Below are positions 1-11,688 of a DNA stretch of 11,688 nt, in pieces (position 1 is the stretch's first letter; each line of letters starts with the position of its first letter). Location of the stretch: the IMG/VR virus record IMGVR_UViG_2571042053_000015; one strand, 5' to 3'. The notes under the pieces are model-generated. The model saw only the letters and a list, made by a program, of their open reading frames with translations. It was not told the DNA's origin and made no database searches. The DNA comes from a virus (taxonomy: Duplodnaviria; Heunggongvirae; Uroviricota; Caudoviricetes). A program made the position numbers and the translations under genes.

Positions 1-1260
1 ATGGCAAAGCTGACAGATATCCAAATCAAGTCATGGATTAAGGCAGGAGAGCGCTTCGAGGGGCGCTCTGACGGCAACGGGCTATACCTTCGCTATCGAG
101 CGGGGGATAAAGTGCCTGTATGGCGTTTTCGATATCAGTTCGCTGGGAAATCACGGGTAATGCTTATTGGATCTTATAGCGAAATATCCCTTTCCAAAGC
201 ACGGGAAATAGCCAAGGAATTATCCGCACGTGTAGCCCTAGGCTTCGATGTCGCCGGGGAAAAGAAAGCGCGAAAAGCGGCTGCTATAGAAAAGATGGAG
301 CGGGAGAAAAACGCGCTTCGCGTGTCAGAGCTAGCAACCGAGTATTTCGAACGGCAGATTTTGGGACGCTGGAAACATCCCGATCTTCTGCGCCGGAGAA
401 TCGATAAGGATATCAACCCACATATTGGCAACATGAAGATAGAGGACGTAAAACCCCGTCATATTGATGCGATGCTACAGAGCGTTGTTGATCGTGGCGC
501 TCCAACCGTAGCTAATGACGTTCTGCGCTGGACTAAACGCATATTCGATTATGCTATCAAGCGTCATGCACTGGAATTAAACCCAGCTGGAGCATTTGAT
601 CTGTCAGACGCTGGCGGGCAGGAAAGTAGCCGTATGCGCTGGCTGACCCGTGAAGAACTTATACGTTTTTTCCAAGCTATGCGCACTGCAAAAGGATTCA
701 GCCGCGAGAACGAGCTGACCATGAAGCTAATCCTCTGCCTGTGTTGTCGCAAAATGGAGCTGTGCGGTGCTCAGTGGGATGAATTCGACCTTGATGAAGC
801 AGTGTGGCATCTACCAGCAGAACGCGTTAAAAACGGCGACGCTATTGATATACCACTACCTCCACCTGCGGTTGGTTGGTTGAGAGAGCTTCGCACTATC
901 GCGGGCAGTGGGAGTAAATGGGTTCTCCCCGCGCGGAAGATGCAACACCGCATGATTCCCCACATTCAGGAAAGCACACTCCCCGTGGCGCTGGCAAAAG
1001 TACGCCGCGAAATGCCAGAAGTACCAAACTTCACAATTCACGATTTCAGACGTACCGCCCGCACCCATTTAGCGGCGTTGGGTGTCGATCCCGTAGTCGC
1101 AGAACGTTGCCTGAATCACCGCATTAAAGGCGTTGAGGGTATCTACAACCGCCACCAGTACTTTGAAGAACGACGGGCAGCCCTGGAACTGTGGGCGGGG
1201 CTTCTGGTTTCGCTTGAACGAGGGGAAAACTACAATGTTATTCCTTTATCTAAAATATAA
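1..1260 (+). CDS. int: Phage integrase, tyrosine recombinase, P4 / IntA-like
   Basis: Complete 419-aa ORF (ATG at 1, TAA at 1258-1260). N-terminal arm-binding-like region (GNGLYLRYRAGDKVPVWRFRYQFAGKSRVMLIGSY). C-terminal catalytic signatures of tyrosine recombinases (HDFRRTARTHL H-x-x-R box; GIYNRHQY nucleophile Tyr region). Family assignment is by recall of motifs, not database search. Confidence 0.9.
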   Translation: MAKLTDIQIKSWIKAGERFEGRSDGNGLYLRYRAGDKVPVWRFRYQFAGKSRVMLIGSYSEISLSKAREIAKELSARVALGFDVAGEKKARKAAAIEKMEREKNALRVSELATEYFERQILGRWKHPDLLRRRIDKDINPHIGNMKIEDVKPRHIDAMLQSVVDRGAPTVANDVLRWTKRIFDYAIKRHALELNPAGAFDLSDAGGQESSRMRWLTREELIRFFQAMRTAKGFSRENELTMKLILCLCCRKMELCGAQWDEFDLDEAVWHLPAERVKNGDAIDIPLPPPAVGWLRELRTIAGSGSKWVLPARKMQHRMIPHIQESTLPVALAKVRREMPEVPNFTIHDFRRTARTHLAALGVDPVVAERCLNHRIKGVEGIYNRHQYFEERRAALELWAGLLVSLERGENYNVIPLSKI

Positions 1261-1275
1261 AAGTTTTGTTTGAAG

Positions 1276-1379
1276 GTATTCACCCTATTCACCTTTTTAA
1301 TTAACTTCATGATTTTAAATAATAAAAAAGGGTGAATACTTACAGTAAAACTAATCACCTTAGTATTCACCTGTTCACC
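1276..1379. repeat. Cluster of about six (T)ATTCACC motifs in direct and inverted orientation in the AT-rich spacer after int
   Basis: GGTATTCACCC at 1276-1286, TATTCACC at 1286-1293, inverted GGGTGAATACT at 1330-1340, AATCACC at 1354-1360, AGTATTCACC at 1362-1371, TGTTCACC at 1373-1379. Looks like iterated protein-binding sites; function unknown. Confidence 0.5.
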
Positions 1380-1452
1380 TTCTAAAGCTGCTGTGGCTGC
1401 TCCCCTTGCCCGAAAACACGCCAGCCACCAGCGTTAAAAAATACAAAAATCA

Positions 1453-1476
1453 TCATCGTCCAGATCTGGACGATGA
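1453..1476. repeat. Perfect 24-bp palindrome TCATCGTCCAGATCTGGACGATGA
   Basis: Verified base by base: 12-bp arms, centred on AGATCT, no spacer. Lies in a noncoding stretch between int and the first cargo operon; candidate operator or cruciform. Confidence 0.6.
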
Positions 1477-1573
1477 CGCCAGCACTCACTCTACAAAACA
1501 ACCTAACTTATTGATTTCAAAAGTAGAGAAAATCTGCTTTATGCCACTAGCTCGCACCCGTCCCCAAAAAGAA

Positions 1574-1603
1574 AAAGCCCGCGCTGGAGACGCACGGGCT
1601 TTT
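1574..1603 (+). terminator. Candidate rho-independent terminator-like hairpin flanked by an A-run and a T-run (potentially bidirectional)
   Basis: AAAAAGCCCG-CGCTGGAGACGCA-CGGGCTTTT: GC-rich stem AGCCCG/CGGGCT with a 13-nt loop, followed by TTTT. Sits about 320 bp after the int stop codon. Confidence 0.4.
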
Positions 1604-1679
1604 GGGTACCGATAACCATGTTTGGAATCAACTCATTGAGTTCGGACCTCAATTTGCATGTTATCACAAGAAAAACACA

Positions 1680-1707
1680 TTGCAATAATTGCAACAACGA
1701 ATATTAT
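1680..1707 (+). promoter_or_regulatory. Candidate sigma70 promoter for the 1761-3341 operon, with a palindromic TTGCAA-TAA-TTGCAA element over the -35
   Basis: -35 TTGCAA (1680-1685), 16-bp spacer, -10 TATTAT (1702-1707); duplicated self-complementary TTGCAA hexamers at 1680-1694. The first ATG is at 1761 with a GAGG Shine-Dalgarno at 1750-1753. Confidence 0.3.
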
Positions 1708-1760
1708 CATTGCGTATTATGAAACATAAATATCCGATAGAACATACTGAGGTCTGACCG

Positions 1761-2312
1761 ATGAAAGATATTACAAACATCGCAGTGACTGGCGAAGATG
1801 GCGTGGTGACGTATGCCGACGGCAGTAAAGAGGAGTTCCAGTGCAGCGGAACCGTTGCGACCATCATTGCAAGTCTTGCAACGACACTCGAGAAAGAACG
1901 CAAAATGCGCATCGCCACCGGCGACCGCCTGCGCCGCATGTACACCCGCGACAGTGATATGATTTCCCGCGGTTTGAATGGCACGTCTGCTACTTCCACG
2001 GCACCGACAGCAATGAATGCTGAGTTCATGCGTCTGGTACGTGCCGTAGCGCCGAAATACGATTCAGCACTGCCCGACGCCGACCCGCGCATCGTTGCGC
2101 TCGATGTGCTGCGCTACGCCCCTGCTGAGGCGTTCAGCGCCGTACACCCTACCCCAATGTCAGAAATCCAGCTGGATCAGGCTATCGATATACTCGAGCA
2201 GGTTGGCGACTACATGAAAGCAAACAATATCGCTCCGAAAATAATTTCTACAGGAGACGCAATCCGCAGCATCAATGCTGACAACGCCACCTTCTGGGGC
2301 AAAAAACACTAA
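1761..2312 (+). CDS. Hypothetical protein (183 aa), first gene of cargo operon 1
   Basis: ORF with a GAGG Shine-Dalgarno 8 nt upstream of the ATG. No motif recognised from sequence. Co-directional and tightly spaced with three downstream genes. Confidence 0.7.
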   Translation: MKDITNIAVTGEDGVVTYADGSKEEFQCSGTVATIIASLATTLEKERKMRIATGDRLRRMYTRDSDMISRGLNGTSATSTAPTAMNAEFMRLVRAVAPKYDSALPDADPRIVALDVLRYAPAEAFSAVHPTPMSEIQLDQAIDILEQVGDYMKANNIAPKIISTGDAIRSINADNATFWGKKH

Positions 2313-2318
2313 AGAGAT

Positions 2319-2513
2319 ATGAGCATGCCTATCTATGACCCGAAATTAGCCGCAGGCAACCCACAGCGCGCCCACCGCCCGATGCTGACCCGTCAGGATC
2401 TTGAAGCGGCAAAGGCACGCAATAACTTCGATCGCCAGAGTCGCAACCTGCAGCAACTCAACGAATCAAATGCACGGTTCTGGAGTGAACAGAATGAGAA
2501 AGCCAAACGTTAA
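2319..2513 (+). CDS. Small hypothetical protein (64 aa)
   Basis: ATG at 2319, 7 nt after the upstream stop, preceded by AAAGAG. Hydrophilic, Q/R/N-rich. Overlaps the next ORF by 20 nt in a different frame. No recognisable domain. Confidence 0.45.
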   Translation: MSMPIYDPKLAAGNPQRAHRPMLTRQDLEAAKARNNFDRQSRNLQQLNESNARFWSEQNEKAKR

Positions 2514-2670
2514 GCCGGTCCTGCTGTCCGCCGAGCAGATGCAGGCCATACGCAACATTCAGGAACGTGAACGCCAGCGCTCCAATCTCGGCGTCGCTCC
2601 CACCGTTCACCAGATTGCCCGCGGCCTCATGGCTAAGGCTCTGGCCTCACTGGCAAGCGAGGGCGTGTAA
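2494..2670 (+). CDS. Small hypothetical protein (58 aa), internal start of the 2401-2670 ORF
   Basis: ATG at 2494 preceded by GGAG (2482-2485) at 8-nt spacing. Its TAA stop (2668-2670) overlaps the ATG of the next gene (TAATG), indicating translational coupling. The longer 2401 start lacks a Shine-Dalgarno. Confidence 0.5.
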   Translation: MRKPNVKPVLLSAEQMQAIRNIQERERQRSNLGVAPTVHQIARGLMAKALASLASEGV

Positions 2671-3341
2671 TGGGCGCCATTCACCAGATATATGAGCAGG
2701 AAATGTTCTATAACTGGATAGGCGATGGTAAACGATGTGTAGCATTCCACGAAGCGGGCCATGCAGTAGCCGCATGGCTTATTCGCTTAGATATGCAGGT
2801 TATCGCCATTATGGATGAATCCGGCTACGTTGCTGGCGAACATGTACATGAAGCCCAGTGTTTGGGCGTTGTTAAACACGGCATAATCCACAACCACGAT
2901 CTCAGGCGTTTGCGGGAGAGTAAATCTGGTGTAGTTGGGCACGATGGCAAAGTTATCCCTTTCATACGCTACTACGCGGAAGGTATAAAACGCGATGCAA
3001 CAAAGGCCGCTTTTGTAGCCCTCGCTGGACCAGTAAGCGAAGCCCTTTACGAAAATAACGAAATTTTCAATAAAAAGTATTCACTCCCTCACCGCTATGA
3101 CATGGCTAACGTAAATGACATGCTCGATTTAATATGTGCCACGGATAAGCAAATTAACAGGAAGTTAATGCTTTCTAAACTTGTTGAAAAGACCAAATTC
3201 CTCATGACTCAATACTGGCCGGAAGTAGGAAAAATAGCGCATTTGCTTGAGCGGGATAACATTGTTAATGGGCGCGATGTTAGCTCGCTAATCGGCCTCA
3301 ACGTCATTGACCGGGCAACGCCATTTTTGCTGGCGGAATAA
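2670..3341 (+). CDS. Stand-alone zinc-metallopeptidase-domain protein, FtsH-like (peptidase M41-type HEAGH motif)
   Basis: 223-aa ORF. Residues 24-36 VAFHEAGHAVAAW carry an HExxH zinc-binding motif in the FtsH-like context (FtsH has AYHEAGHAI). No AAA+ ATPase or transmembrane region precedes it. Start codon overlaps the upstream stop. Confidence 0.75.
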   Translation: MGAIHQIYEQEMFYNWIGDGKRCVAFHEAGHAVAAWLIRLDMQVIAIMDESGYVAGEHVHEAQCLGVVKHGIIHNHDLRRLRESKSGVVGHDGKVIPFIRYYAEGIKRDATKAAFVALAGPVSEALYENNEIFNKKYSLPHRYDMANVNDMLDLICATDKQINRKLMLSKLVEKTKFLMTQYWPEVGKIAHLLERDNIVNGRDVSSLIGLNVIDRATPFLLAE

Positions 3342-3417
3342 CCCCTGCCCGAGCTCATTCGACGATTTATTCCTCGGCGGGTAAGCTATACCGGTCTACC
3401 TAACTGCGAGCACAAGG

Positions 3418-4476
3418 ATGATGAATAATTTAATCAATCGCATTGCTTTAACCTTTCTAGCGTTAGTACTCACAGGCTGCACTGCGGGGAAAATCGATCC
3501 CGCAAAAGCGTTAACACAAATGCATATCGTCAAAAGTGATGACTATAAGAAGCGCCCCGGCTGGCCTGCGTTGGTTCGTCTGGGTACTGACGATTGTGAG
3601 ACATACAAAAGTGGCGGCGGTAGCCTCTTTAAGTGGGACGGGCTGACGTGCAACGACAAAAGCATTATCCTGGCGGTTAATAGCAAACCACAGACCATTC
3701 CAGTGTTCTACGCTGCTTACCATGAATACGGGAGCTATGGGGTCGGGGAACTATCCAATTTTGACAATAGCACCCGAACAGGTGAGGAAGCCTCGAAGAT
3801 TCTGGTTAACCTGACCACAGTATTGAACAATCCGGCAAAAGTTGACGCTATCTATGCTGACTATGAAAAGGATCGTTGGAGCATGGGACTTGGTACAGTC
3901 AACGAAAGCGATTTTAAAAAGAGCCTGGCTACTTTTGCTCAGGAACGGGATAAGCTTGCCTCTGAATACCATAAATTACGTGACGCAAACCAAAAGAGAT
4001 ACCTAGCTGAACGGGACGAACGAATCAAACGTGAGAAAGAAGAGGCCATGGCCTCTGAAAAAACGATTGATCTCGTGTTATGGCAGAATCCAACAGTTGA
4101 GCAACAGATGGTTGTTGACGCTCTGCACACTATTAAATTCACAATAAGAAACGATGGCGTGGCATACGCTAACGGTCGCCGATTTATGTCAATTGCCGGG
4201 ATGGAATATCTCAGGAATAGCCTAGCTCTGAGTATGGAGTCATGTTCAGACGCTGGGGCATATGTTGGTGATACGGCATTAAATCGCGCATGTATTCAGG
4301 GCTTGGCGAGGAACATTGTTGAGTGGGGGAAAACCGCCAACGACCGTTCTATTTCAGACAGAGCATGGAACGCAGCCGCAATGGATGGCAGCATTAACTA
4401 CAACCCAATCAAGTATGAAATCCTGTTTTCACATTGGGCAGGAATGGCCCGTGTCTACTCTGCTCGTAGATATTAA
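3418..4476 (+). CDS. Predicted lipoprotein (352 aa) with a central coiled-coil / charged segment; function unknown
   Basis: N-terminus MMNNLINRIALTFLALVLTGC has a hydrophobic signal peptide and lipobox L-T-G-C (Cys21). Charged, helix-prone segment ERDKLASEYHKLRDANQKRYLAERDERIKREKEEA. Gene is visibly AT-rich compared with int and primase. Followed by a terminator. Confidence 0.75.
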   Translation: MMNNLINRIALTFLALVLTGCTAGKIDPAKALTQMHIVKSDDYKKRPGWPALVRLGTDDCETYKSGGGSLFKWDGLTCNDKSIILAVNSKPQTIPVFYAAYHEYGSYGVGELSNFDNSTRTGEEASKILVNLTTVLNNPAKVDAIYADYEKDRWSMGLGTVNESDFKKSLATFAQERDKLASEYHKLRDANQKRYLAERDERIKREKEEAMASEKTIDLVLWQNPTVEQQMVVDALHTIKFTIRNDGVAYANGRRFMSIAGMEYLRNSLALSMESCSDAGAYVGDTALNRACIQGLARNIVEWGKTANDRSISDRAWNAAAMDGSINYNPIKYEILFSHWAGMARVYSARRY

Positions 4477-4526
4477 ACACTGCGCTTCGAACTGATAAAT
4501 TTAAGCTTAATCAGTACATTACTGTT

Positions 4527-4552
4527 AGCCCGCATTTTAGCGGGCTTTCTTT
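4527..4552 (+). terminator. Rho-independent terminator after the lipoprotein gene
   Basis: AGCCCGC-ATTTTA-GCGGGCT stem-loop (7-bp GC-rich stem, 6-nt loop) followed by TTCTTT, 50 nt after the stop at 4476. Confidence 0.6.
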
Positions 4553-4569
4553 AGTTGAGCTTTGTACAA

Positions 4570-4585
4570 GATGTAAATTTACATC
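4570..4585. repeat. Perfect 16-bp AT-rich palindrome GATGTAAATTTACATC between convergent operons
   Basis: Verified self-complementary. Located between the + strand terminator and the stop (4619) of the - strand operon. Confidence 0.5.
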
Positions 4586-4618
4586 CTGATTATCCAGTGC
4601 GCCGTAAAAGCTGGCAAT

Positions 4619-5731
4619 CTATTTAACTAAACGTAAATGTGACGGGCGTATCCCCGATTCCTGGGTACTCGATTTTCCACCATTGATAGCTTCCATAAAG
4701 AAGCTGTTACTGAAAGTAAGTGCACTCGCTTCGTCCGCTGGTAACCTCAACTGCTCGAGAATATCTCCCCTTTTAACGCCTTTGCTGCGTAGGGCTGAAA
4801 ACACTTTATCCAGCACTAATGACTTTTCACGTTCAGCAATCCCTTGAGGCTCACTCGTACGATATCCACGGCGAGCAAGTTCTATCGATAGCTGTCGATA
4901 ATGCCATTCGGTAGATAAACCGACATCAAACGTACGGCGCACCAAAGCCGCCAATGATACCCGCCAGTTCTTTTTTAACGAGATGAGTAGATCAAGCGAT
5001 GGCATTCTTGGCACTAAAGCTAAAATACTACGCTCAGGCATCAAAAAGGCCGATGCGAATCGATCTGCATCCTGCTCAGCTTGGCGGCCGTTGTTAGTTG
5101 AATGTTTATGGAGAACCAAGTGCCCCAGTTCATGAGCTGCATCGAATCGACTACGCTCCGGCGTTTTCATTGTATTCAAAAGCACAAAAGGTTTTTCATC
5201 CATCCAGAACGAAAAGGCGTCTACTTCAATACAATTTTCCGCGAGAGAGAACACACGGACCCCATTAGCTTCAAGAAGATGGACCATGTTAGAGATGGAT
5301 AATTCACCTATCCCCCAACTTTCTCTAACCACGCGAGCAGCTCGCTCAGGCTCAGAATAACCATCGAAACTACAATCAGGTACATTAGGTTTAGGAAGCT
5401 TAAACTGCCCGTCAATCCAAGCTGATAGCTCTTGCGCGAGCTTTCCGGCTCCGAGTGCTGAGTCCCTTTTCTGTGCCGTCAACTTTGTCATTGCACGGAA
5501 ACTAACGGCTTCTGGCGACAGAGTAGGTACATCCCTGTCGAGGAAGAACTCAATCGGATAGCCCAGAACAGCAGAAATCCGTTCCATGGTATCGCTGGCT
5601 ATGGCATCAAAAATCCCTGCTTTCTCGTAATTCGAAATCGTCTTACTAGTCAATTCTGTAGCTTCAGCTAAAGCTCTTTGTGTCAGGCCTCTCCGTTCTC
5701 TGGCTATACGTAAACGCTCTGAATTAAACAT
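4619..5731 (-). CDS. Fused XRE-family HTH / ImmA-IrrE (M78-like) zinc-metallopeptidase protein
   Basis: 370-aa ORF. N-terminal HTH (RLRIARERRGLTQRALAEATELTSKTISNYEKA, typical XRE / Cro-C1 helix-turn-helix). Central HExxH in the ImmA/IrrE context (RFDAAHELGHLVLHKH). Second gene of a two-gene - strand operon, 9 nt after the upstream stop. Confidence 0.85.
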   Translation of the reverse strand: MFNSERLRIARERRGLTQRALAEATELTSKTISNYEKAGIFDAIASDTMERISAVLGYPIEFFLDRDVPTLSPEAVSFRAMTKLTAQKRDSALGAGKLAQELSAWIDGQFKLPKPNVPDCSFDGYSEPERAARVVRESWGIGELSISNMVHLLEANGVRVFSLAENCIEVDAFSFWMDEKPFVLLNTMKTPERSRFDAAHELGHLVLHKHSTNNGRQAEQDADRFASAFLMPERSILALVPRMPSLDLLISLKKNWRVSLAALVRRTFDVGLSTEWHYRQLSIELARRGYRTSEPQGIAEREKSLVLDKVFSALRSKGVKRGDILEQLRLPADEASALTFSNSFFMEAINGGKSSTQESGIRPSHLRLVK

Positions 5732-5740
5732 GGTGCATAT

Positions 5741-6460
5741 TTAGCCTGTTTTTAAAATGTCGAGATCGATATCCGGTGTAAACTGCGGTACATCACCGTT
5801 CTGAACAATAGGGTCAGGTTGATGAGGAGCAATAATTAAACGTGTGGAGAAGGCATTAACTACATTCTTGTTATTGTATGAAATCGGGCGTGAAAGCTCA
5901 GCTCGGATCCCCACGCGCTCATCCCCGTCAATTTCATAAAAATCGTAAAGTAAAAACCATAAGTCCAGTCCGATTTTATTCGGTAGCAGTGGTATAACAT
6001 CACCTTCCGGCATGTCTAAATCCAGCTTAAGCTGGCTATCATCCAGGATAAGCTCACCCTGACCCGGGGTGTTATTATGGATTAACCCCATCAGCTCACA
6101 AGTAAAATCACCTTTCTTCATGCGAGACTCAGGAAATCCATGAACCAAACCTGTCTGATCACACCCCCGGCAGAGGTAAAGGGCAACTTTATCACTTACA
6201 GTCAGTTCAACATTTCGCAGGGACAGACGTTTGTAGCCTTTCGGAGCCAGAATGTCGCGGGCTGCACTCACCCCCTCACCATAGAAATATTGCCCACGTG
6301 AGGTCTTGGGGTGATTCTGAGTCGTCGAATAACGACCAGACAAGCCACGCTCAAGAATACGCCTGAGATCACTTTGGCTCAGATTCAGGGACTGCAGGTA
6401 GGATTCAACATCGTCAGGATCTGCCAAAACAATGGTTTTTGCGAGATTATGAGAGTACAT
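5741..6460 (-). CDS. Hypothetical protein (239 aa), first gene of the - strand two-gene operon; candidate effector / toxin partner
   Basis: ORF with a good Shine-Dalgarno (AAGAGG about 9 nt upstream of the ATG on the - strand). No motif recognised by eye. Immediately upstream of the HTH-peptidase gene. Confidence 0.7.
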   Translation of the reverse strand: MYSHNLAKTIVLADPDDVESYLQSLNLSQSDLRRILERGLSGRYSTTQNHPKTSRGQYFYGEGVSAARDILAPKGYKRLSLRNVELTVSDKVALYLCRGCDQTGLVHGFPESRMKKGDFTCELMGLIHNNTPGQGELILDDSQLKLDLDMPEGDVIPLLPNKIGLDLWFLLYDFYEIDGDERVGIRAELSRPISYNNKNVVNAFSTRLIIAPHQPDPIVQNGDVPQFTPDIDLDILKTG

Positions 6461-6489
6461 CGGAAAAGCCTCTTATATATTTTCTATTT

Positions 6490-6518
6490 TTTATACCTCA
6501 TTTGAGGTTTAAAAACAA
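6490..6518 (-). promoter_or_regulatory. Candidate promoter of the - strand operon with a palindromic operator (ACCTCA-TT-TGAGGT, 6495-6508) in the spacer
   Basis: Read on the - strand: -35 TTGTTT (+ strand 6513-6518), 17-bp spacer containing the 14-bp inverted repeat, -10 TATAAA (+ strand 6490-6495), about 29 nt before the ATG at 6460. Confidence 0.35.
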
Positions 6519-6666
6519 GAAAATCACTGTATAAAATCTCAGAGATAATCGACAGATTAGAGAGTATTATCCATATTGAGGCTATCCCGACGGGGAGAAA
6601 AGCGGCTACGCCTTGCCGCCTGCCTCCCCCATTATCTCAAGGCGGTGACGTGTAAGGCGAACGTGC

Positions 6667-7494
6667 ATGAGTGGTTTTGTTTTTCCTTTCGAGTTTCAAC
6701 CAGTGCCAGAGGCATTGGCAATCCTGAACGACATGGATATTGCTCCCTTTGAAATAACCGAAAAACACCTAGAAAGCTGGTGGGCGGAGGGGAAAATTCA
6801 ACTGTGCTTTAACTGGGGTAGATTCTGGAAAGCTGGCTTAGCCGACGAACTGGCAAAAACAGAAGGCTACGCAGAATTAGGGGCGAAAGAAAAGATCACT
6901 GCGCTCAATGCTGTATCCGCTTCCCCCGAGGCTAACATCAGTCTTGTCGTGCCATCTTACAGCGATTTAAGTTTTATCTGGCGCGGGCATAGCGACGATC
7001 CACTCCCCTGTATCGAGGCCAAACCCTACGGGCTTGATCAACCTTTTGTTATCAAACGCGTTCCTCACACCTGCGAGGACTATTGCGATTACGGTACGCA
7101 GCATTGGGAAAAACTTTACCATTCGCTGCACATTTCGAGTATGGTGCTGCCGCGTGCTGAAGCTGAAAAAATTTATTATCTCTGCAACCCTACAGCTATT
7201 CCAGGCATGGACGAAAAGACGGCATCTGCAGTATCTGCAGTATCTGCGAAAACGGTTAACTATCTGGCCACTGCTTTAAAAGCTTTTATTCACATCCATT
7301 ACGGGGCTGATGTGGCGGACAACCTGCGCAAACATCTTGAGGATCCCACCAGTGATATACGGAAAGACTTTGCGAATAAAGGGATCAAAGCGCCAGGTGG
7401 AAAAGCGCTGGCCAGCCATCTGAAAAATATTCTGATTGAAGTTTTACCCGCGCTCGACAACGTCGATGTGGAGAGTGACGCTGGTAATACATAA
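6667..7494 (+). CDS. Hypothetical protein (275 aa), orphan cargo gene immediately upstream of alpA
   Basis: ORF with AAGG 9 nt upstream of the ATG. No recognisable catalytic motif. Cys/His-rich patch (PHTCEDYCDYGTQHWEKLYHSLH). Contains an in-frame 9-bp tandem repeat. Confidence 0.7.
   Translation: MSGFVFPFEFQPVPEALAILNDMDIAPFEITEKHLESWWAEGKIQLCFNWGRFWKAGLADELAKTEGYAELGAKEKITALNAVSASPEANISLVVPSYSDLSFIWRGHSDDPLPCIEAKPYGLDQPFVIKRVPHTCEDYCDYGTQHWEKLYHSLHISSMVLPRAEAEKIYYLCNPTAIPGMDEKTASAVSAVSAKTVNYLATALKAFIHIHYGADVADNLRKHLEDPTSDIRKDFANKGIKAPGGKALASHLKNILIEVLPALDNVDVESDAGNT
7222..7248 (+). repeat. In-frame 9-bp tandem repeat, three imperfect copies (GCATCTGCA GTATCTGCA GTATCTGCG), encoding ASAVSAVSA
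   Basis: Direct inspection of the sequence inside the 6667-7494 ORF. Confidence 0.7.
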
Positions 7495-7590
7495 CCCCGG
7501 AACATTCCATATATTCCGACGCATTAGAATATTCCAGAGCCCATCACCATAACCTTGCGATTACCTTCTCACTCAATAGCAGGTAATCGC

Positions 7591-7803
7591 ATGAAATCGC
7601 AAACTTTCACCTTTCCCACCAATGGCAACGCACGAGCCAAACAAGTGGCGCACTATCTTGGAGTGCATATCAGCACCGTATGGCGCTATGCAAAACGTCC
7701 TGATTTTCCAAAACCCCACCAGTTAACCGACGGCGTGACCGTCTTTGACGCCGCAGCTATTCGCCAATGGAACAAGCAAAAAACCGGGGGTGAGAATGCT
7801 TAA
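7591..7803 (+). CDS. alpA: AlpA-family (P4 Vis-like) transcriptional regulator / excisionase-like protein
   Basis: 70-aa protein from the internal ATG at 7591 (AGGTAA Shine-Dalgarno just upstream). Sequence QVAHYLGVHISTVWRYAKRPDFPKPHQLTDGVTVFDAAAIRQW matches the AlpA / Vis winged-HTH pattern. Position between int and primase matches P4-like elements. Confidence 0.8.
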   Translation: MKSQTFTFPTNGNARAKQVAHYLGVHISTVWRYAKRPDFPKPHQLTDGVTVFDAAAIRQWNKQKTGGENA

Positions 7804-7857
7804 CGCGACCGTGAGCACACCCTGCACGACAGCCGTTCGATCTCCATTGTTGGCGGG

Positions 7858-8052
7858 TCAGGCTTTCGGCTCAATACCCAGCCGCTGGAGTTCTTTGCGC
7901 CCCAAGGTTTTCATCCAATTAGCTAAACTCATACCTGCATCTCGTGCGGCGGCCTCGAATTGCTCTTTCAATTCTGGGGCGATCCTCACTTGGAAAGCTG
8001 GTGCCTTTCCCCTGCCTTTGGGCTGTTTATCACGCTGTATTACTGTTGACAT
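7858..8052 (-). CDS. Ribbon-helix-helix (Arc / CopG-like) DNA-binding protein, candidate repressor of the replication operon
   Basis: 64-aa product from the internal ATG (MSTVIQRDK...). PAFQVRIAPELKEQFEAAARDAGMSLANWMKTLGRKEL shows the beta-strand / helix / helix pattern of RHH proteins. Divergent from the operon starting at 8187. The longer 8103 start would place the operator-like palindromes inside the coding region. Confidence 0.6.
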   Translation of the reverse strand: MSTVIQRDKQPKGRGKAPAFQVRIAPELKEQFEAAARDAGMSLANWMKTLGRKELQRLGIEPKA

Positions 8053-8108
8053 GTATGTACCTATTAAACTAAGATTCAAATCAATAGGTACGCACCTTAA
8101 CATGTTAA
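8045..8108. promoter_or_regulatory. Divergent control region with operator-like inverted repeats
   Basis: Consensus-like TTGACA at 8045-8050. Perfect 9-bp inverted repeat GTACCTATT (8057-8065) / AATAGGTAC (8083-8091) with a 17-bp spacer. Perfect 12-bp palindrome TTAACATGTTAA (8097-8108). Confidence 0.35.
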
Positions 8109-8122
8109 GGTCAGAAAAGACA

Positions 8123-8156
8123 ACGCCCCGTATGTGTTGCGAGCACTACGGGGCGT
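8123..8156. other. GC-rich hairpin (10-bp perfect stem ACGCCCCGTA / TACGGGGCGT, 14-nt loop) in the leader of the small-gene / primase operon
   Basis: Verified inverted repeat. On the - strand it is followed by TGTCTTTTCTG (terminator-like); on the + strand it sits about 30 nt upstream of the 8187 start. Could be an attenuator, terminator or RNA element. Confidence 0.4.
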
Positions 8157-8186
8157 CTAACCAACAACGTTACGGAGACTAACGCT

Positions 8187-8387
8187 ATGGCTAAGCCGCA
8201 GTGTACCCAAACTCACCCCAAATATCAGTATCGTTTTATGGCGCTCGATCGCGCTGACCGCCAGGCAAAACCCTGCAAAATCATTGTTGAGGCCACCAGC
8301 GAGCACGAAGCGCGTAAAGTGCTGGCTCCTCACTACATCCTGTCACTGTCCGCCGTTTTGCCAGTTCAGGAGGTGAGCCATGTTTAA
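8187..8387 (+). CDS. Small hypothetical protein (66 aa) of the P4-like replication / regulatory module
   Basis: ATG with GGAG 9 nt upstream. First of five tightly coupled small ORFs preceding the primase. Resemblance to small Icd-like / Ash-like proteins of P4-family prophages is only a vague recollection, not verified. Confidence 0.55.
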   Translation: MAKPQCTQTHPKYQYRFMALDRADRQAKPCKIIVEATSEHEARKVLAPHYILSLSAVLPVQEVSHV

Positions 8388-8574
8388 CGTCATTGTCACG
8401 GTCATCTATCACTTTTCGGGAACGATCCGTCGTTTTGCTATTCCGGAACGTTTCAATAATCGTGAGCTCGCAGAGAAAGCAGCGCAGCAGTTAACCCATA
8501 CCAGCTATCTGGATGATGGAGTGAGCAGAATTGTGACCCACGCGGCGGAAGTAGTGGAGGTGCGCCATGTATGA
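8380..8574 (+). CDS. Small hypothetical protein (64 aa)
   Basis: Strong Shine-Dalgarno AGGAGG 6 nt upstream of the ATG. 8-nt overlap with the upstream gene (ATGTTTAA). Confidence 0.55.
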   Translation: MFNVIVTVIYHFSGTIRRFAIPERFNNRELAEKAAQQLTHTSYLDDGVSRIVTHAAEVVEVRHV

Positions 8575-8755
8575 CGCCTACCTGAACCCAAAGGACGCAC
8601 TCCGTCCGATCGCCGTTGCACTCGAGGCTGCGCAGTTTATCGCGCTTGACCCGGAGAATACCGATTTAGCCCATGAGCTGATCGCCTGGGCACTTGAAAC
8701 AGCCGCGCGTGCCTCAGCTGCGCAACGTAACACCCCGGAGGGTAAAAATGCTTAA
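8567..8755 (+). CDS. Small hypothetical protein (62 aa)
   Basis: GGAGG 6 nt upstream of the ATG. 8-nt overlap with the upstream gene (ATGTATGA). Confidence 0.5.
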   Translation: MYDAYLNPKDALRPIAVALEAAQFIALDPENTDLAHELIAWALETAARASAAQRNTPEGKNA

Positions 8756-9056
8756 TCTCAATACATGGAATCTTTTCACGCTGCCGCTGAACGGTGGCGC
8801 AGCTGAGACAGCGCCGGACGATCTGCGTCTGCTGGCCGCTGTGGGGGACGAGGCTCGCAACGACTACCTGCGCGGTGTAAGCGCCATCGGCAATCTGATC
8901 TTCTGGGCATGTGATAACCCCAACTACACCGACCATAAAGCTGACCTGCCAGCGCTGGGCGCATTCCTGAAACATACCGCTGATATGGCGCGCGCTGCCG
9001 AATTCATGGCGGGACATCTGGACTCACTGGCTGACGGCAAAGAGGGAGGCAAATAA
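8748..9056 (+). CDS. Hypothetical protein (102 aa), internal start of the 8694-9056 ORF
   Basis: ATG at 8748 preceded by GGAGGG at about 6-nt spacing; 8-nt overlap with the upstream gene (ATGCTTAA). The 8694 start has no Shine-Dalgarno and lies inside the upstream gene. Confidence 0.55.
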   Translation: MLNLNTWNLFTLPLNGGAAETAPDDLRLLAAVGDEARNDYLRGVSAIGNLIFWACDNPNYTDHKADLPALGAFLKHTADMARAAEFMAGHLDSLADGKEGGK

Positions 9057-9277
9057 TGCCACGCAAACATCGCTCATCAAGCAACCTGATCAAATTAATG
9101 GAACGCCAGAAAGGTATAGGGCGCGACGATATCCAGATCGCAGATAATCGCCCTACATTCATGCCGTACGAGCCGAACGGAACCTACGCCACAAACCGCC
9201 ATACCCGCCGTATGCTACGCAAGCTCCACGGCATCCAGGCAAAAAGAATGTGTGATCTGAAAGGAGGTCAGAAATGA
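9056..9277 (+). CDS. Small basic hypothetical protein (73 aa)
   Basis: GAGGGAGG Shine-Dalgarno upstream. Start overlaps the upstream stop (TAATG) and its stop overlaps the primase start (ATGA). Arg/Lys-rich. Confidence 0.55.
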   Translation: MPRKHRSSSNLIKLMERQKGIGRDDIQIADNRPTFMPYEPNGTYATNRHTRRMLRKLHGIQAKRMCDLKGGQK

Positions 9278-11688
9278 TTGGATTCGATCACCTGATGGAG
9301 CAGGGGCAGAAACGCACCCCTGCTCGTTTTACTGCAAATAGCTTTTCTGACCTGTGCAACGCTATTCTATCGCATCGTGTGCAAATTTCCATCACCCCAG
9401 AAATGACAGATGAAGAGCGACGTAAGGAAAAGCAGAAACTGTACTGGTTCTCGGCAACTACCCAGCAGGACGGGCAGCGACGTAAACCCGAAAACATGGC
9501 ACCGTGTGCTTTCGGTATGCTGGACATTGACGGCAGCACTCCCGGTGCAATCACAGCACTTGTACAGGTGTTCCGGCGATACTCAATGCTGGTGTACCAG
9601 ACGGCCAGCTATACGGCGGATGAACCTCGTCTGCGTATTGTGTGCGAGCTTTCCCGAGCGGTTGAATCTGACTACCGCCGAGCGACAGGCGAATCCATAG
9701 AAACTTTGTTGATGCAGGAGGCTGGATTCTCATTCGCCAGCCTGGCGGATAAGAAAGCACGCTGGGAGAACGGCAGCGATTATGTTGTCTTTGACCGCAA
9801 TGTATACGGCGCTCAAAGCTATTGCTACTGTCCACACTCTGGAGCGAAAGCCCAGAATTACGCGGGCGCGGTAATCGACGTAGGGGCGTTACCGGAACCC
9901 GCCCAGCTACCAGCGAAGGCGGCCAAAAGCAAGGCAAAGAAACAGCGCCAGCGTGACGCCGCGGCGGTAATAGATGCTGATTTTGACGATCTGAGCGCCG
10001 GACCGGATAACTTCCTTATCGCCGACCTGCGCAGCGCACTCTGGTTTCCCTCCATGCTGCAAAAGGCATGGGACAATGGGGCGTGGATTGAGCAGGGCTA
10101 CCGCCTTGCATCTCTCAAAGGCACCGATTTTGAGGACGACGCGCGGCAGCTGTGGGTCGAGTGGTCATTGACCGCGGCGGATGGCTGGCCTGATGAAGAA
10201 CTTGATGAAGTCGCAGCACAACGCTGGGATGGTCTCGCCCCTGACAAAACCAGCTATAAAGCTATTTTTACTGATGCTCAGGCGCAGGGGTGGAATAATC
10301 CGAGCACATGGCGAGCAAAGGCCGCGTACATTGAGAAAATGGCCCCCAGCACACGCGGTGAACTGCTAGCGCAATATTACGGCAACGTATGCCTGAAAGC
10401 TGATGGTAACATGGTTTATCACTATACCGGGCAGGGGTGGGAGCACATCGCCGATGCCGAGTTGCGCCGCCAGCTTTCGCATATTTTCAAAGATAACGGG
10501 GTCCCCTTTACACCGTACGAGGTTAAAAGCGCGATTGAGGCTATGGGAATGCTTCTGCCTTTAATGGGAGAAACTCCTCGTAACCTGATTGGCTTTGCCA
10601 ACGGCGTTTATGATCTCGAGGCGCAGCGATTCCGCCCCCACTGCCCAGACGATTGGCTGACCAGCCATAACGGCGTTGAATACACGCAACCGGTTAAAGG
10701 CGAAACCCTGAAAAACAATGCCCCAAACTTCTGGCGCTGGCTGCATCATTCCGCAGGGGGCGACTTCGACAAAATGGAGAGAATCAAAGCCGCTCTGTAT
10801 ATGGTGCTGGCAAACCGCTACGACTGGCAACTGTTCATCGAGGTTACCGGTGCTGGTGGCAGTGGTAAAAGCGTGTTCACGGGTATTGCACGTATGCTGA
10901 CGGGCGAACTACACGCCACCAGCGGCACAATGGAGGACATGGACACCGCGCGCGAACGCGCATCTTTTGTCGGCAAAAGCCTGATCACCCTACCCGACCA
11001 AGCAACATATACGGGTTCCGGGCCGGGTATCAAGGCTATAACGGGCGGCGACGTGGTAAGGATCGACCCAAAGCACGAAAAGCCATTCCATACGGTTATT
11101 CGCGCCGTTGTCATCGCAACAAACAACGAACCTATGCGTTTCACCGAACGACAAGGCGGGATATCGCGGCGCCGGGTTATTTTCCCGTTTAACCATGAAG
11201 TGCCGGAGGCGGAACGTGATCCCCATCTGCTCGATAAAATTAAAGCCGAACTGCCGGTAATCGTCCGTGGTCTGCTGATTGACTTCGAACAGCCAGGCAA
11301 AGCCAAATCGCTACTTATCGCGCAGCGTGATTCAGCGGAAGCGCTGCAGGTGAAGAACGATAACGACCCGATGTATGGCTTTTGCTCTTACCTGCTAGGT
11401 TTGCCGAATCCCGAGGGCATGTACATGGGCGATGGGCGCATGGCGCGAGAGCCACGCATCTACCTCTATCATGCTTATCTGGCCTATCTGGAAGCCTACG
11501 GTTATCAGAGAACCCCCACCCTGCCAAAGTTCAGCGGAGATTTACGGGACACGCTCAAAGCCTTTGGTATTACTCTGGACAGTAAAAAGAGTAAAAAGGG
11601 CAAAAGATATAACGTCAATTTGTCTGACAGGGCACAAGAATGGCTGGGAGAAGACGAACTCTCAGCTGTGCCCGACACATTGCAGTAA
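9274..11688 (+). CDS. P4-alpha-like DNA primase / helicase (phage-plasmid primase, P4 family, P-loop NTPase C-terminal region)
   Basis: 804-aa ORF with a strong Shine-Dalgarno (AGGAGG) and TAA at 11686-11688. Walker A P-loop VTGAGGSGKSVF (about nt 10846-10880). Size and position after alpA and the small genes fit the primase-helicase of P4-like satellites / PICIs. Recalled from family knowledge, not searched. Confidence 0.85.
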   Translation: MIGFDHLMEQGQKRTPARFTANSFSDLCNAILSHRVQISITPEMTDEERRKEKQKLYWFSATTQQDGQRRKPENMAPCAFGMLDIDGSTPGAITALVQVFRRYSMLVYQTASYTADEPRLRIVCELSRAVESDYRRATGESIETLLMQEAGFSFASLADKKARWENGSDYVVFDRNVYGAQSYCYCPHSGAKAQNYAGAVIDVGALPEPAQLPAKAAKSKAKKQRQRDAAAVIDADFDDLSAGPDNFLIADLRSALWFPSMLQKAWDNGAWIEQGYRLASLKGTDFEDDARQLWVEWSLTAADGWPDEELDEVAAQRWDGLAPDKTSYKAIFTDAQAQGWNNPSTWRAKAAYIEKMAPSTRGELLAQYYGNVCLKADGNMVYHYTGQGWEHIADAELRRQLSHIFKDNGVPFTPYEVKSAIEAMGMLLPLMGETPRNLIGFANGVYDLEAQRFRPHCPDDWLTSHNGVEYTQPVKGETLKNNAPNFWRWLHHSAGGDFDKMERIKAALYMVLANRYDWQLFIEVTGAGGSGKSVFTGIARMLTGELHATSGTMEDMDTARERASFVGKSLITLPDQATYTGSGPGIKAITGGDVVRIDPKHEKPFHTVIRAVVIATNNEPMRFTERQGGISRRRVIFPFNHEVPEAERDPHLLDKIKAELPVIVRGLLIDFEQPGKAKSLLIAQRDSAEALQVKNDNDPMYGFCSYLLGLPNPEGMYMGDGRMAREPRIYLYHAYLAYLEAYGYQRTPTLPKFSGDLRDTLKAFGITLDSKKSKKGKRYNVNLSDRAQEWLGEDELSAVPDTLQ

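Follow-up and report, generated by a model that had tools for sequence, protein, structure and literature searches.

The closest described systems are the PICIs of Gram-negative bacteria, such as EcCICFT073 and EcCIMP1 (PMC6092414; PMC6739421; PMC11773190), which have their size, a terminal integrase, an AlpA protein, an Icd-like protein and a P4/D5-type primase in common with the island considered here. The int-alpA RNA motif is likewise common to both, structural and lysis genes are detected in neither, and both have variable slots occupied by accessory and defence genes. As to the placement of such genes, PICI interference genes adjoin the replication module, and the accessory genes of SaPIs are found at the 3' end or beside int (PMC6092414; PMC6739421).

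How does our locus compare? The window, by which we mean the whole stretch of 11,688 nucleotides that was analysed, covers 95% of an E. coli island that sits between yicC and dinD, its insertion point being the 3' end of yicC. Delimited against the empty yicC-dinD site of K-12, the island measures 12,281 bp (12.3 kb). The genes follow the order int ... alpA ... icd ... primase, with integrase, AlpA and D5-type primase domains recognized by Pfam and the Icd-like gene by annotation. The RNA motif RF02996 is present, and Pfam and PHROG scans found no structural or lysis families among the main ORFs. Judged by gene content, the island can thus be described as a PICI-like phage satellite of the Gram-negative type. 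The whole window is 100% identical in six complete E. coli genomes and is matched over its full length, at 99.2-99.9%, in three further ones; of the 5426 complete E. coli genomes compared, 949 contain parts of it.

The cluster of five genes and its surroundings

The two genes of interest here, encoding a peptidase-like protein and a predicted lipoprotein, follow three small ORFs on the same strand (Table 1). These ORFs, each with a GC content of 53-57%, precede the peptidase-like gene in every E. coli island seen and have no match in Pfam, PHROG, PADLOC or NCBIfam. Sequence searches against PDB chains did not recognize an RppA-like protein in orf183 or orf275, and PDB searches with orf183, orf275 and the lipoprotein profile returned nothing relevant. 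Two candidate homologies were rejected: a 331-aa ORF upstream of the Dickeya pair is not a counterpart of orf183 (E = 0.25), and the 226-aa ORF of E2348/69 matches orf275 weakly and over the first 48 residues only (E = 0.006).

The start codon of the peptidase-like gene overlaps the stop codon of orf58 by one base (TAATG, 2668-2672), an arrangement by which the gene is translationally coupled to its GC-rich upstream neighbour. No terminator-like site was found on the plus strand between the peptidase-like and lipoprotein genes, the next such hairpin being that at 4527-4546. The five genes therefore probably constitute one same-strand operon, in which both genes of the pair would share a transcript that starts from a promoter near 1661-1707 and ends at the hairpin 4527-4546.

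Table 1. Features of the window, with coordinates counted from its first nucleotide
Feature	Position	Strand	Basis or remark
Tyrosine integrase gene, P4-type arm-binding domain	1..1260	+	Pfam Arm-DNA-bind_3, Phage_int_M, Phage_integrase; left end of island
Non-coding AT-rich spacer, 39.6% GC	1261..1760	.	
GTATTCACC-type repeats	1276-1371		In spacer 1261..1760
Perfect 24-bp palindrome	1453-1476		In spacer 1261..1760
Bidirectional terminator-like hairpin	1573-1603		In spacer 1261..1760
Promoter-like sites	1661-1707		In spacer 1261..1760
orf183, 183 aa	1761-2312	+	RefSeq annotation
orf62, 62 aa	2325-2513	+	RefSeq annotation
orf58, 58 aa	2494-2670	+	RefSeq annotation
Candidate standalone M41-like zinc peptidase, 223 aa	2670..3341	+	Weak Pfam M41 match, PDB profiles, motifs
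Predicted lipoprotein, 352 aa	3418..4476	+	Signal peptide, lipobox, alignment
Terminator-like hairpin	4527..4546	+	Between convergent lipoprotein and RmrA genes
RmrA, Rosmer antitoxin, HTH + M78 (ImmA/IrrE) zinc peptidase	4619..5731	-	PADLOC 1.3e-149, full length; Pfam Peptidase_M78, HTH_3
RmrT, Rosmer toxin	5741..6460	-	PADLOC 1.1e-52, full length; 9 bp upstream of RmrA
int-alpA RNA motif, Rfam RF02996	6575..6642	+	46.5 bits vs gathering score 35.8; upstream of orf275-alpA operon
orf275, 275 aa	6667..7494	+	Unrelated 226-aa ORF at same place in sister islands
AlpA-family regulator gene	7555..7803 (annotated start 7591)	+	Pfam Phage_AlpA 7.7e-07
P4/D5-type primase-helicase gene, GC 54.1%	9274..11688	+	Pfam D5_N, DUF5906, Pox_D5
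Low-GC zone, 4.9 kb	2670..7554	.	GC 46.4%; block 2670-4476 is its first 37%
Variable slot; sister islands at yicC have other contents here	3357..7546	.	Island comparison

Base composition

A sequence-only reading had described the block 2670-4476, which holds the pair, as markedly more AT-rich than the integrase and primase genes, and had taken this to suggest a separate horizontal acquisition. The direction of the difference is borne out: GC amounts to 46.8% in the block, against 51.1% in the integrase gene (4.3 points; z = -2.4), 54.1% in the primase gene (7.3 points; z = -4.7) and 55.7% in the upstream ORF trio (1761-2669; 8.9 points; z = -4.4). The word 'markedly', however, overstates a modest dip, and the emphasis placed on the lipoprotein gene was mistaken, as this gene, at 46.6%, is slightly GC-richer than the peptidase-like gene at 45.8%. 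At third codon positions the picture is divided. With a GC3 of 0.478, the block lies below the primase (0.585) and the pooled trio (0.618), with z = -3.9 in both cases, but does not differ from the integrase (0.493; z = -0.45), which consequently fails as a GC-rich backbone contrast.

Of the two limits proposed for the block, the left one coincides with a true step of about 9 points in GC and about 14 points in GC3 at the junction of orf58 and the peptidase-like gene. At the right one nothing changes: the neighbouring 4477-7554 has a GC content of 46.2% (z = 0.36 against the block), so that the low-GC zone is to be drawn from 2670 to 7554. This zone lies about 6.5 points under the pooled host flank genes (GC 52.9%, GC3 55.6%). 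The lowest GC of the window is that of the non-coding stretch 1261-1760, and 32% of same-size windows along the whole window are equally or more AT-rich than the block. Entropy segmentation of GC over the window did not recover the block; the one split that reached significance fell at 8239, where GC passes from 48.0% to 54.5%, and a further split, of borderline support (p = 0.013), fell at 3045; neither position agrees with the limits of the block. Nor did di- and tetranucleotide signatures, which have low power at this block length, separate the block from the backbone: its tetranucleotide correlation with the primase gene is 0.51, as against 0.50 between the two halves of the primase gene itself. 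The peptidase-like gene has an unusually low GC2 of 0.326, a value that hints at an influence of protein composition. The GC dip over the block is thus real but modest, and the block is no distinct compositional domain.

Mosaic junctions and the history of the dip

Comparative genomics reveals four junctions from the start of the block onward, at 2667-2771, 3329-3356, 4486 and 7547, and a further one at about 1572. The latter marks the onset of homology to a module in a tRNA-Gly island (L004), with which the window has the stretch 1572-4486 in common. The upstream trio is 99.4-100% identical between the two, and only two sites differ over 1785-2770; at 2667-2771 the identity then steps from 99.8% to about 90%, the divergence staying at 8-11% from 2771 on, until homology stops at 4486, 10 bp past the lipoprotein stop codon. 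As the GC step at 2670 lies within 100 bp of this recombination junction, a distinct history of 2771-4486 relative to the upstream trio is real, whichever side moved. Another island, L005, has only 2590-3408 in common with the window. Still other limits are seen in two sister islands that occupy the same site in the chromosome, those of E2348/69 and AUSMDU00014361, which match 1-3329/3356 at 99.2-99.3%, with the whole peptidase-like gene included, and resume at 7547-11688 with about 99% identity. Their divergence is limited to 3330/3357-7546, where they do not have the lipoprotein gene, so that the two genes are parted by the junction at 3329-3356. The slot that replaces this segment in E2348/69 has a GC content of 44.6%, compared with 46% here, and carries a different Rosmer allele; the only stretch of the slot that is conserved with the sister islands, at 78%, is 6576-6678, in the area of the int-alpA motif. 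Taken together, these comparisons indicate that the region is a mosaic and not a single insert. The proposal of a separate acquisition thus survives in part, insofar as two junctions of this mosaic (2667-2771 and 4486) lie near the limits given for the block, whereas its extension to one foreign unit is not supported.

Beyond E. coli, the islands of Dickeya, Yersinia and Serratia contain a peptidase homolog, with 22-25% identity, directly upstream of a lipoprotein homolog, so that adjacency of the pair is seen in four genera, Escherichia included. Across the loci measured, GC amounts to 40-49% in the peptidase gene and 40-48% in the lipoprotein gene, as compared with 49-60% in the accompanying primase; in all nine related loci, from six genera, that allow the comparison, each of the two genes is more AT-rich than this primase. 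Low GC is therefore long-standing in these genes and no sign of recent entry here. The GC step from orf58 to the peptidase gene recurs in L004 and L012, the other two islands measured, and accordingly predates this element. The low GC would then be a conserved trait of the peptidase-like and lipoprotein genes and no scar of recent insertion here. As such a step can sit in mid-operon and persist across genera, it is by itself a poor means of dating an acquisition.

Which history accounts best for the dip? Our preferred explanation, to which we assign a probability of about three in four, is that it marks the start of a mosaic, low-GC accessory region and reflects a conserved trait, no single recent insertion being involved. 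On this view the block is made up of the fourth and fifth genes of the cluster in a PICI-like island, both about 4-7 GC points under the integrase and primase, and the dip would open the 4.9-kb accessory region 2670-7554, which also carries the Rosmer toxin-antitoxin defence pair and orf275 and would have been built and reshuffled through homologous recombination among related satellites. That 2670-4476 is instead one foreign cassette, inserted whole into the cargo from a donor of lower GC, could be argued from the position of the step exactly at the orf58/peptidase junction, from the drop in identity to L004 and the end of homology at 4486, and from the adjacency of the two genes in four genera. 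Yet this seems unlikely. In the sister islands the peptidase gene (99%) goes with the integrase arm and is not accompanied by the lipoprotein gene, and among 55 E. coli genomes with a match to some part of the block no more than 12 have both. The overlap of the peptidase start with the upstream stop codon, the recurrence of the step in two other islands, the AT-richness relative to the primase in all relatives measured, the indistinct tetranucleotide signature and the continuation of low GC for 3 kb past 4476 speak against it as well.

We consider it still less probable that there is no meaningful shift at all and that the dip is an ordinary gene-to-gene fluctuation, due in part to amino-acid composition. 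The low GC2 of the peptidase-like gene would fit such a view, as would the 32% of same-size windows that are equally AT-rich, the failure of segmentation to isolate the block, its GC3 equal to that of the integrase and the small distance of 4.3 points from this gene. It is countered by the larger differences to the primase and the trio, which recur at GC3, by the same sign of the difference in all related loci with a primase, and by the distance of the whole zone from the host flank genes. The compositional finding in itself matters little, since lower-GC accessory genes are expected in mosaic phage satellites; more is to be gained from its context, a nearly complete PICI-like island in which the int-to-alpA interval is a recombination hotspot with alternative Rosmer alleles and with the conserved peptidase-lipoprotein pair.

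The peptidase-lipoprotein pair and known systems

What can be discerned about the two proteins? The product of 3418..4476 is predicted to be a lipoprotein by sequence criteria: its N-terminal MMNNLINRIALTFLALVLTGC contains the lipobox L-T-G-C, which ends the signal peptide, and Cys21 is invariant in an alignment of 26 homologs. It matches no family in Pfam, PADLOC, PHROG or NCBIfam. An AlphaFold2 model reached a pLDDT of 81.8, and fold searches with it against PDB and BFVD returned nothing below E = 0.4, so that searches of these two resources gave no fold or sequence relative with a known function. The peptidase candidate scores 21.1 bits with the Pfam M41 model, under the gathering cut-off of 29.9, which two of its distant relatives narrowly pass (30.3 and 30.9 bits). 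Its PDB profile matches are to AFG3L2 and FtsH, both weak (E = 0.005-0.2). In relatives at 22-25% identity the HEAGH motif (residues 27-31) is invariant, as are G120, D144 and W183, and the downstream D144 is a candidate third zinc ligand; the AlphaFold2 model, built on an 18-sequence alignment, has a pLDDT of 46.7, too poor for geometry, which is why no fold search was run with it. The 299 distant standalone relatives are small proteins of 150-220 aa. PADLOC fits the peptidase-like gene to no known defence-system model, and the scans of the peptidase, the lipoprotein and the small ORFs with PHROG, PADLOC and NCBIfam gave nothing beyond the HEXXH stretch. In the literature we found nothing joining peptidase M41 and PICIs, and nothing on M41, the lipoprotein or yicC in the paper on helper-embedded PICIs.

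A tentative possibility is that the pair, perhaps a zinc peptidase of the cytoplasm with a lipoprotein of the envelope, serves as a PICI-like satellite module for helper-phage interference, superinfection exclusion or defence, and it would be a reasonable candidate for an interference or exclusion function. The two proteins need not act together: most E. coli islands with the peptidase gene are without the lipoprotein gene, and the latter also occurs away from the former or alone, as in Photorhabdus, where the homolog is an isolated insert within the tail module of a myovirus prophage.

Three observations are compatible with the reading as an interference module. The adjacency of the genes has been kept in four genera despite the divergence of the peptidase, the pair is persistently AT-rich, and it is located in the arc behind the primase, the place of PICI interference genes. 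The accessory genes of the present island lie between int and alpA, whereas the peptidase module of L004, L005 and L012 follows the primase.

With FtsH and the other members of peptidase family M41, the candidate has in common the HEAGH motif in an M41-typical 'VAFHEAGHAVAAW' context, a downstream 'LAGPVSE' motif together with the invariant Asp, and a helical C-terminal part that aligns collinearly with FtsH and AFG3L2. Unlike FtsH, it comprises only 223 aa and has neither a membrane anchor nor an AAA+ ATPase domain, no AAA match being found by Pfam, and unlike M41 peptidases it has about 45 additional residues inserted behind the HEXXH helix. It is accordingly no FtsH, but a standalone protein resembling the FtsH protease domain.

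The composition of the block follows an ordinary pattern for phage-satellite elements, as genes of the accessory or 'moron' kind in phages and satellites typically have a lower GC than their neighbours. Outside the block, two adjacent genes fit the RmrT and RmrA models of RosmerTA over their full length, and the predicted antitoxin joins an HTH domain to a zinc peptidase, in agreement with the description of this system (Millman et al., 2022; bioRxiv 10.1101/2022.05.11.491447); the pair is assigned by sequence models. In satellite and prophage defence hotspots, cargo is exchanged in a manner matched here by the slot 3357-7546, whose content changes between islands that are 99% identical elsewhere and which in both of its variants combines a Rosmer allele with low GC. 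Unlike the cargo of such hotspots, the peptidase-like gene lies outside the swapped slot.

Base composition of the two accessory genes

What does base composition say about the origin of the peptidase-like and lipoprotein genes? Inspection by eye had suggested that the block at 2670-4476 is markedly AT-rich and was acquired separately into the element. GC and GC3, computed gene by gene with GC3 values pooled (table), bear out the direction of this impression relative to the integrase and primase genes, though the magnitude is modest and the boundaries only half right. In overall GC the block lies below the primase gene (z = -4.7) and the three upstream ORFs (z = -4.4) and is weakly lower than the integrase gene (z = -2.4); in GC3 it equals the integrase gene (z = -0.45) and differs from the primase gene and the upstream trio (z = -3.9 each). 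The lipoprotein gene, singled out as especially AT-rich, is slightly richer in GC than the peptidase gene, and 32% of all same-length windows are as AT-rich as the block or more so. Since the following 3 kb (4477-7554; 46.2% GC, z = 0.36 against the block) are equally low, the low-GC zone comprises 2670-7554 (46.4% GC). Recursive entropy segmentation, with significance by permutation testing, yields one clear split at 8239 (48.0% versus 54.5%, p < 0.003) and a borderline second at 3045 (p = 0.013). The tetranucleotide comparison proposed by the sequence-only reading does not set the block apart either: di- and tetranucleotide signatures separate it from the backbone no better than one half of the primase gene from the other. 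The block is no compositional unit.

Within the window, GC is lowest (39.6%) in a non-coding spacer of 500 bp that follows the integrase gene. It carries three direct copies of GTATTCACC / CTATTCACC and one inverted GGTGAATAC at 1276-1371, a perfect 24-bp palindrome, TCATCGTCCAGATCTGGACGATGA, at 1453-1476, and a bidirectional terminator-like hairpin at 1573-1603. Are these binding sites for the integrase or for a regulator?

The low GC recurs in related islands. The peptidase and lipoprotein genes of the primase-less loci (Dickeya, Photorhabdus) are both below the locus average, and the primase gene (49-60%) exceeds both the peptidase gene (40-46%) and the lipoprotein gene (43-48%) in all nine related loci where it can be compared (six genera, locus GC 45-52%). 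The step from orf58 (56-61%), the last of the upstream trio, to the peptidase gene (41-46%), which in the window falls on a translationally coupled junction (TAATG), is also found in a tRNA-Gly island of strain EC02 (L004) and in E. coli ET791. Low GC is thus a long-standing, conserved feature of these accessory genes and carries no information on recent entry into this island. Repeated passage via hosts of lower GC could have caused it, as could a mutation bias in accessory genes with weak expression, or selection, for example H-NS silencing.

Island layout and mosaic relatives

Six complete E. coli genomes (including 2011C-4251, SJ7 and O45:H2 FWSEC0003) contain the window at 100% identity, and three further ones match it from end to end at 99.2-99.9%; sections of it are present in 949 of 5426 complete E. 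coli genomes, always on the chromosome. In 2011C-4251 the island lies between yicC and dinD. Relative to the empty K-12 site, the insertion is 12,281 bp (5812-18092 of this locus, L001) and begins at the last codons of yicC; the window lacks its leftmost 188 bp and its rightmost 404 bp. One copy of a 19-bp direct repeat, TTGTACCCAAGACTGTACC, lies within each end of the island (L001 5922 and 18004), and GTGAACA-type repeats 3' of the primase gene, outside the window (L001 17750-17860), are possibly replication-origin iterons as described for E. coli PICIs. By their profile matches, RmrT and RmrA form a predicted complete RosmerTA defence pair. No structural or lysis genes were recognised among the ORFs scanned.

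Features of the island and their base composition (window coordinates unless a locus is named)
Feature	Position	Strand	GC (%)	GC3	Match
Tyrosine integrase	1-1260	+	51.1	0.493	
AT-rich spacer, repeats and bidirectional terminator-like hairpin	1261-1760	.			
Three small ORFs	1761-2670	+	55.7 (1761-2669)	0.618 (1761-2669)	
Flagged block	2670-4476		46.8	0.478	
Peptidase-like gene	2670-3341	+	45.8	0.478	
Lipoprotein gene	3418-4476	+	46.6	0.479	
Terminator-like hairpin	4527-4546	+			
RmrA	4619-5731	-			PADLOC 1.3e-149
RmrT	5741-6460	-			PADLOC 1.1e-52
int-alpA RNA motif	6575-6642	+			Rfam RF02996, 46.5 bits (cut-off 35.8)
ORF of 275 aa (orf275)	6667-7494	+			
AlpA-family regulator	7555-7803	+			
Arc/YlcI-like ORF	7858-8103	-			
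Icd-like gene	8187-8387	+			
Small ORFs	8380-9277	+			
D5/P4-type primase	9274-11688	+	54.1	0.585	
Eleven host genes flanking the island			52.9	0.556	
Peptidase-lipoprotein pair, Dickeya	L010 7284-9071				
Peptidase-lipoprotein pair, Yersinia	L017 5343-7062				
Peptidase-lipoprotein pair, Serratia	L018 5276-7125				

Two sister islands at the yicC site (E2348/69 and AUSMDU00014361) share 1-3329/3356 with the window at 99.2-99.3% and the right arm, 7547-11688, at 98.8-98.9%. Everything in between is replaced except for about 100 bp around the int-alpA motif, which lies just upstream of orf275 and alpA; this stretch (6576-6678, 78% identity) is the only conserved part of the swapped slot. With 99.1-99.4% identity, the peptidase gene thus belongs to the conserved left arm, and the first gene within the slot encodes the lipoprotein. 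The E2348/69 replacement, likewise low in GC (44.6%), carries an unrelated 226-aa ORF and a different Rosmer allele (L002 6453-8320; RmrA 3.5e-125, RmrT 8e-16; other PADLOC sub-models); in this slot alleles are thus replaced, as in a defence hotspot. In the right arm, mismatches to E2348/69 are densest in the 500-bp bin 8047-8546 (18 of 54), and AUSMDU00014361 has no detectable homology over 7879-8124. A divergent gene pair follows alpA here: an Arc/HicB-like ORF, whose relatives are annotated as YlcI/YnfO family, and the Icd-like gene, which matches PHROG 1743, 'transcriptional repressor'.

The tRNA-Gly island of EC02, otherwise unrelated and with a different integrase and primase, has 1572-4486 in common with the window. 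Over the trio and the initial 100 bp of the peptidase gene (window 1785-2770, L004 9214-10199) only 2 sites differ, divergence is 8-11% from 2771 over the following 1.7 kb, and homology stops 10 bp past the lipoprotein stop codon; a sharp recombination junction lies within those initial 100 bp. Another island at yicC, of a third type (L005), has only 2590-3408, orf58 and the peptidase gene, in common (89.5%). Together, the alignments place junctions at about 1572, 2667-2771, 3329-3356, 4486 and 7547. Two of these lie near the limits first proposed for the block, but a third (3329-3356) splits it.

The peptidase-lipoprotein pair

The 223-aa peptidase-like protein carries HEAGH in an FtsH-like context. 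It scores 21.1 bits against Pfam M41, under the cut-off of 29.9, and gives a trace match to NCBIfam FtsH, while its family profile matches chains of AFG3L2 and of FtsH over two stretches in collinear order (E = 0.005-0.2). An identity as FtsH was rejected because both an AAA+ domain and a membrane segment are absent. Close relatives (at least 73% identity) are found in Enterobacterales only; searched against 1.84 billion representatives, the profile retrieves 299 proteins at E <= 0.001. Most of these 299 are standalone proteins of 150-220 aa without the ~45-residue insertion, and some just exceed the Pfam M41 cut-off. H27, E28, H31, G120, D144 and W183 are invariant down to 22-25% identity. 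FtsH coordinates zinc through both histidines of HEXXH and an Asp further downstream, and D144 is the candidate for the latter. The AlphaFold2 model is poor (pLDDT 46.7). An E. coli variant of 226 aa (P0024; 66 contigs), in which about 50 N-terminal residues are replaced and HEAGH is absent, may be an inactive or recombinant form.

In the 352-aa predicted lipoprotein, the signal peptide includes the lipobox LTGC. Its homologs, every one annotated as hypothetical, occur in Enterobacterales only; Cys21 and four further Cys are invariant, and the pairs C60/C78 and C276/C292 suggest periplasmic disulfides. The confident AlphaFold2 model (pLDDT 81.8) predicts a mostly helical fold that includes a long central helix and one small beta unit. 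Neither the model, compared with PDB and BFVD, nor the sequence, compared with solved structures, found a match.

Do the two genes form a unit? A peptidase homolog that retains HEAGH at only 22-25% identity stands directly upstream of a lipoprotein homolog (37-69%) in islands of Dickeya, Yersinia and Serratia. The primase gene immediately precedes the peptidase homolog in Yersinia and Serratia; no primase gene was called in the Dickeya stretch retrieved. Adjacency of the pair is thus conserved across genera, and its retention by such divergent homologs suggests that the genes are functionally linked. Against such a link, most E. coli islands with the peptidase gene are without the lipoprotein gene: the block is matched in 55 of 5426 complete E. 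coli genomes, with both genes in 12 and the peptidase gene only in about 40. In two among the genomes listed, the DNA-level match covers the lipoprotein gene alone; the one examined, ET791, has a peptidase gene, in diverged form, at another place in the island. The lipoprotein gene, moreover, sits between alpA and the replication genes in helper-embedded PICIs of E. coli, Salmonella and Klebsiella, and in ET791 an orf187-orf62-orf58-peptidase quartet follows a DUF927 primase in the same island as the lipoprotein gene. A 38%-identical lipoprotein homolog in a Photorhabdus prophage (L011 8001-9125) is isolated within a myovirus tail/baseplate cluster. This insert is AT-rich (40% GC) and adjoins a YafO-toxin gene. 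The helper-embedded islands (ET791, L012 6082-17214; L015; L016) are integrated between head genes of prophages. Drawn on a circularised element, all these arrangements would put both genes in the primase-alpA arc, with the int/att cassette at varying positions within that arc.

Possible role and kinship with known satellites

The five genes at 1761-4476 lie on the same strand, with frames that overlap or nearly abut up to the peptidase gene and a gap of 76 bp before the lipoprotein gene; promoter-like sites are present at 1661-1707 and a terminator-like hairpin downstream. The cluster would form one operon, whose distal genes would supply a cytoplasmic zinc peptidase and an envelope lipoprotein as satellite accessory functions. 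Lipoprotein inserts in prophages commonly mediate exclusion. PICIs keep phage-interference genes in the post-replication region (PMC6739421; PMC6092414). Tentatively, at a probability of about 0.3, the pair may be a phage-interference or exclusion module, the remaining probability being spread over unrelated roles.

We found no literature on the peptidase-lipoprotein pair. The compositional finding is ordinary: a modest dip, its extent mis-stated, in the mosaic accessory region of an element whose kind is known. The island, the Rosmer slot and the pair are likewise of known kinds; in gene set and size the island corresponds to a Gram-negative PICI-type satellite (PMC6092414, PMC11773190).
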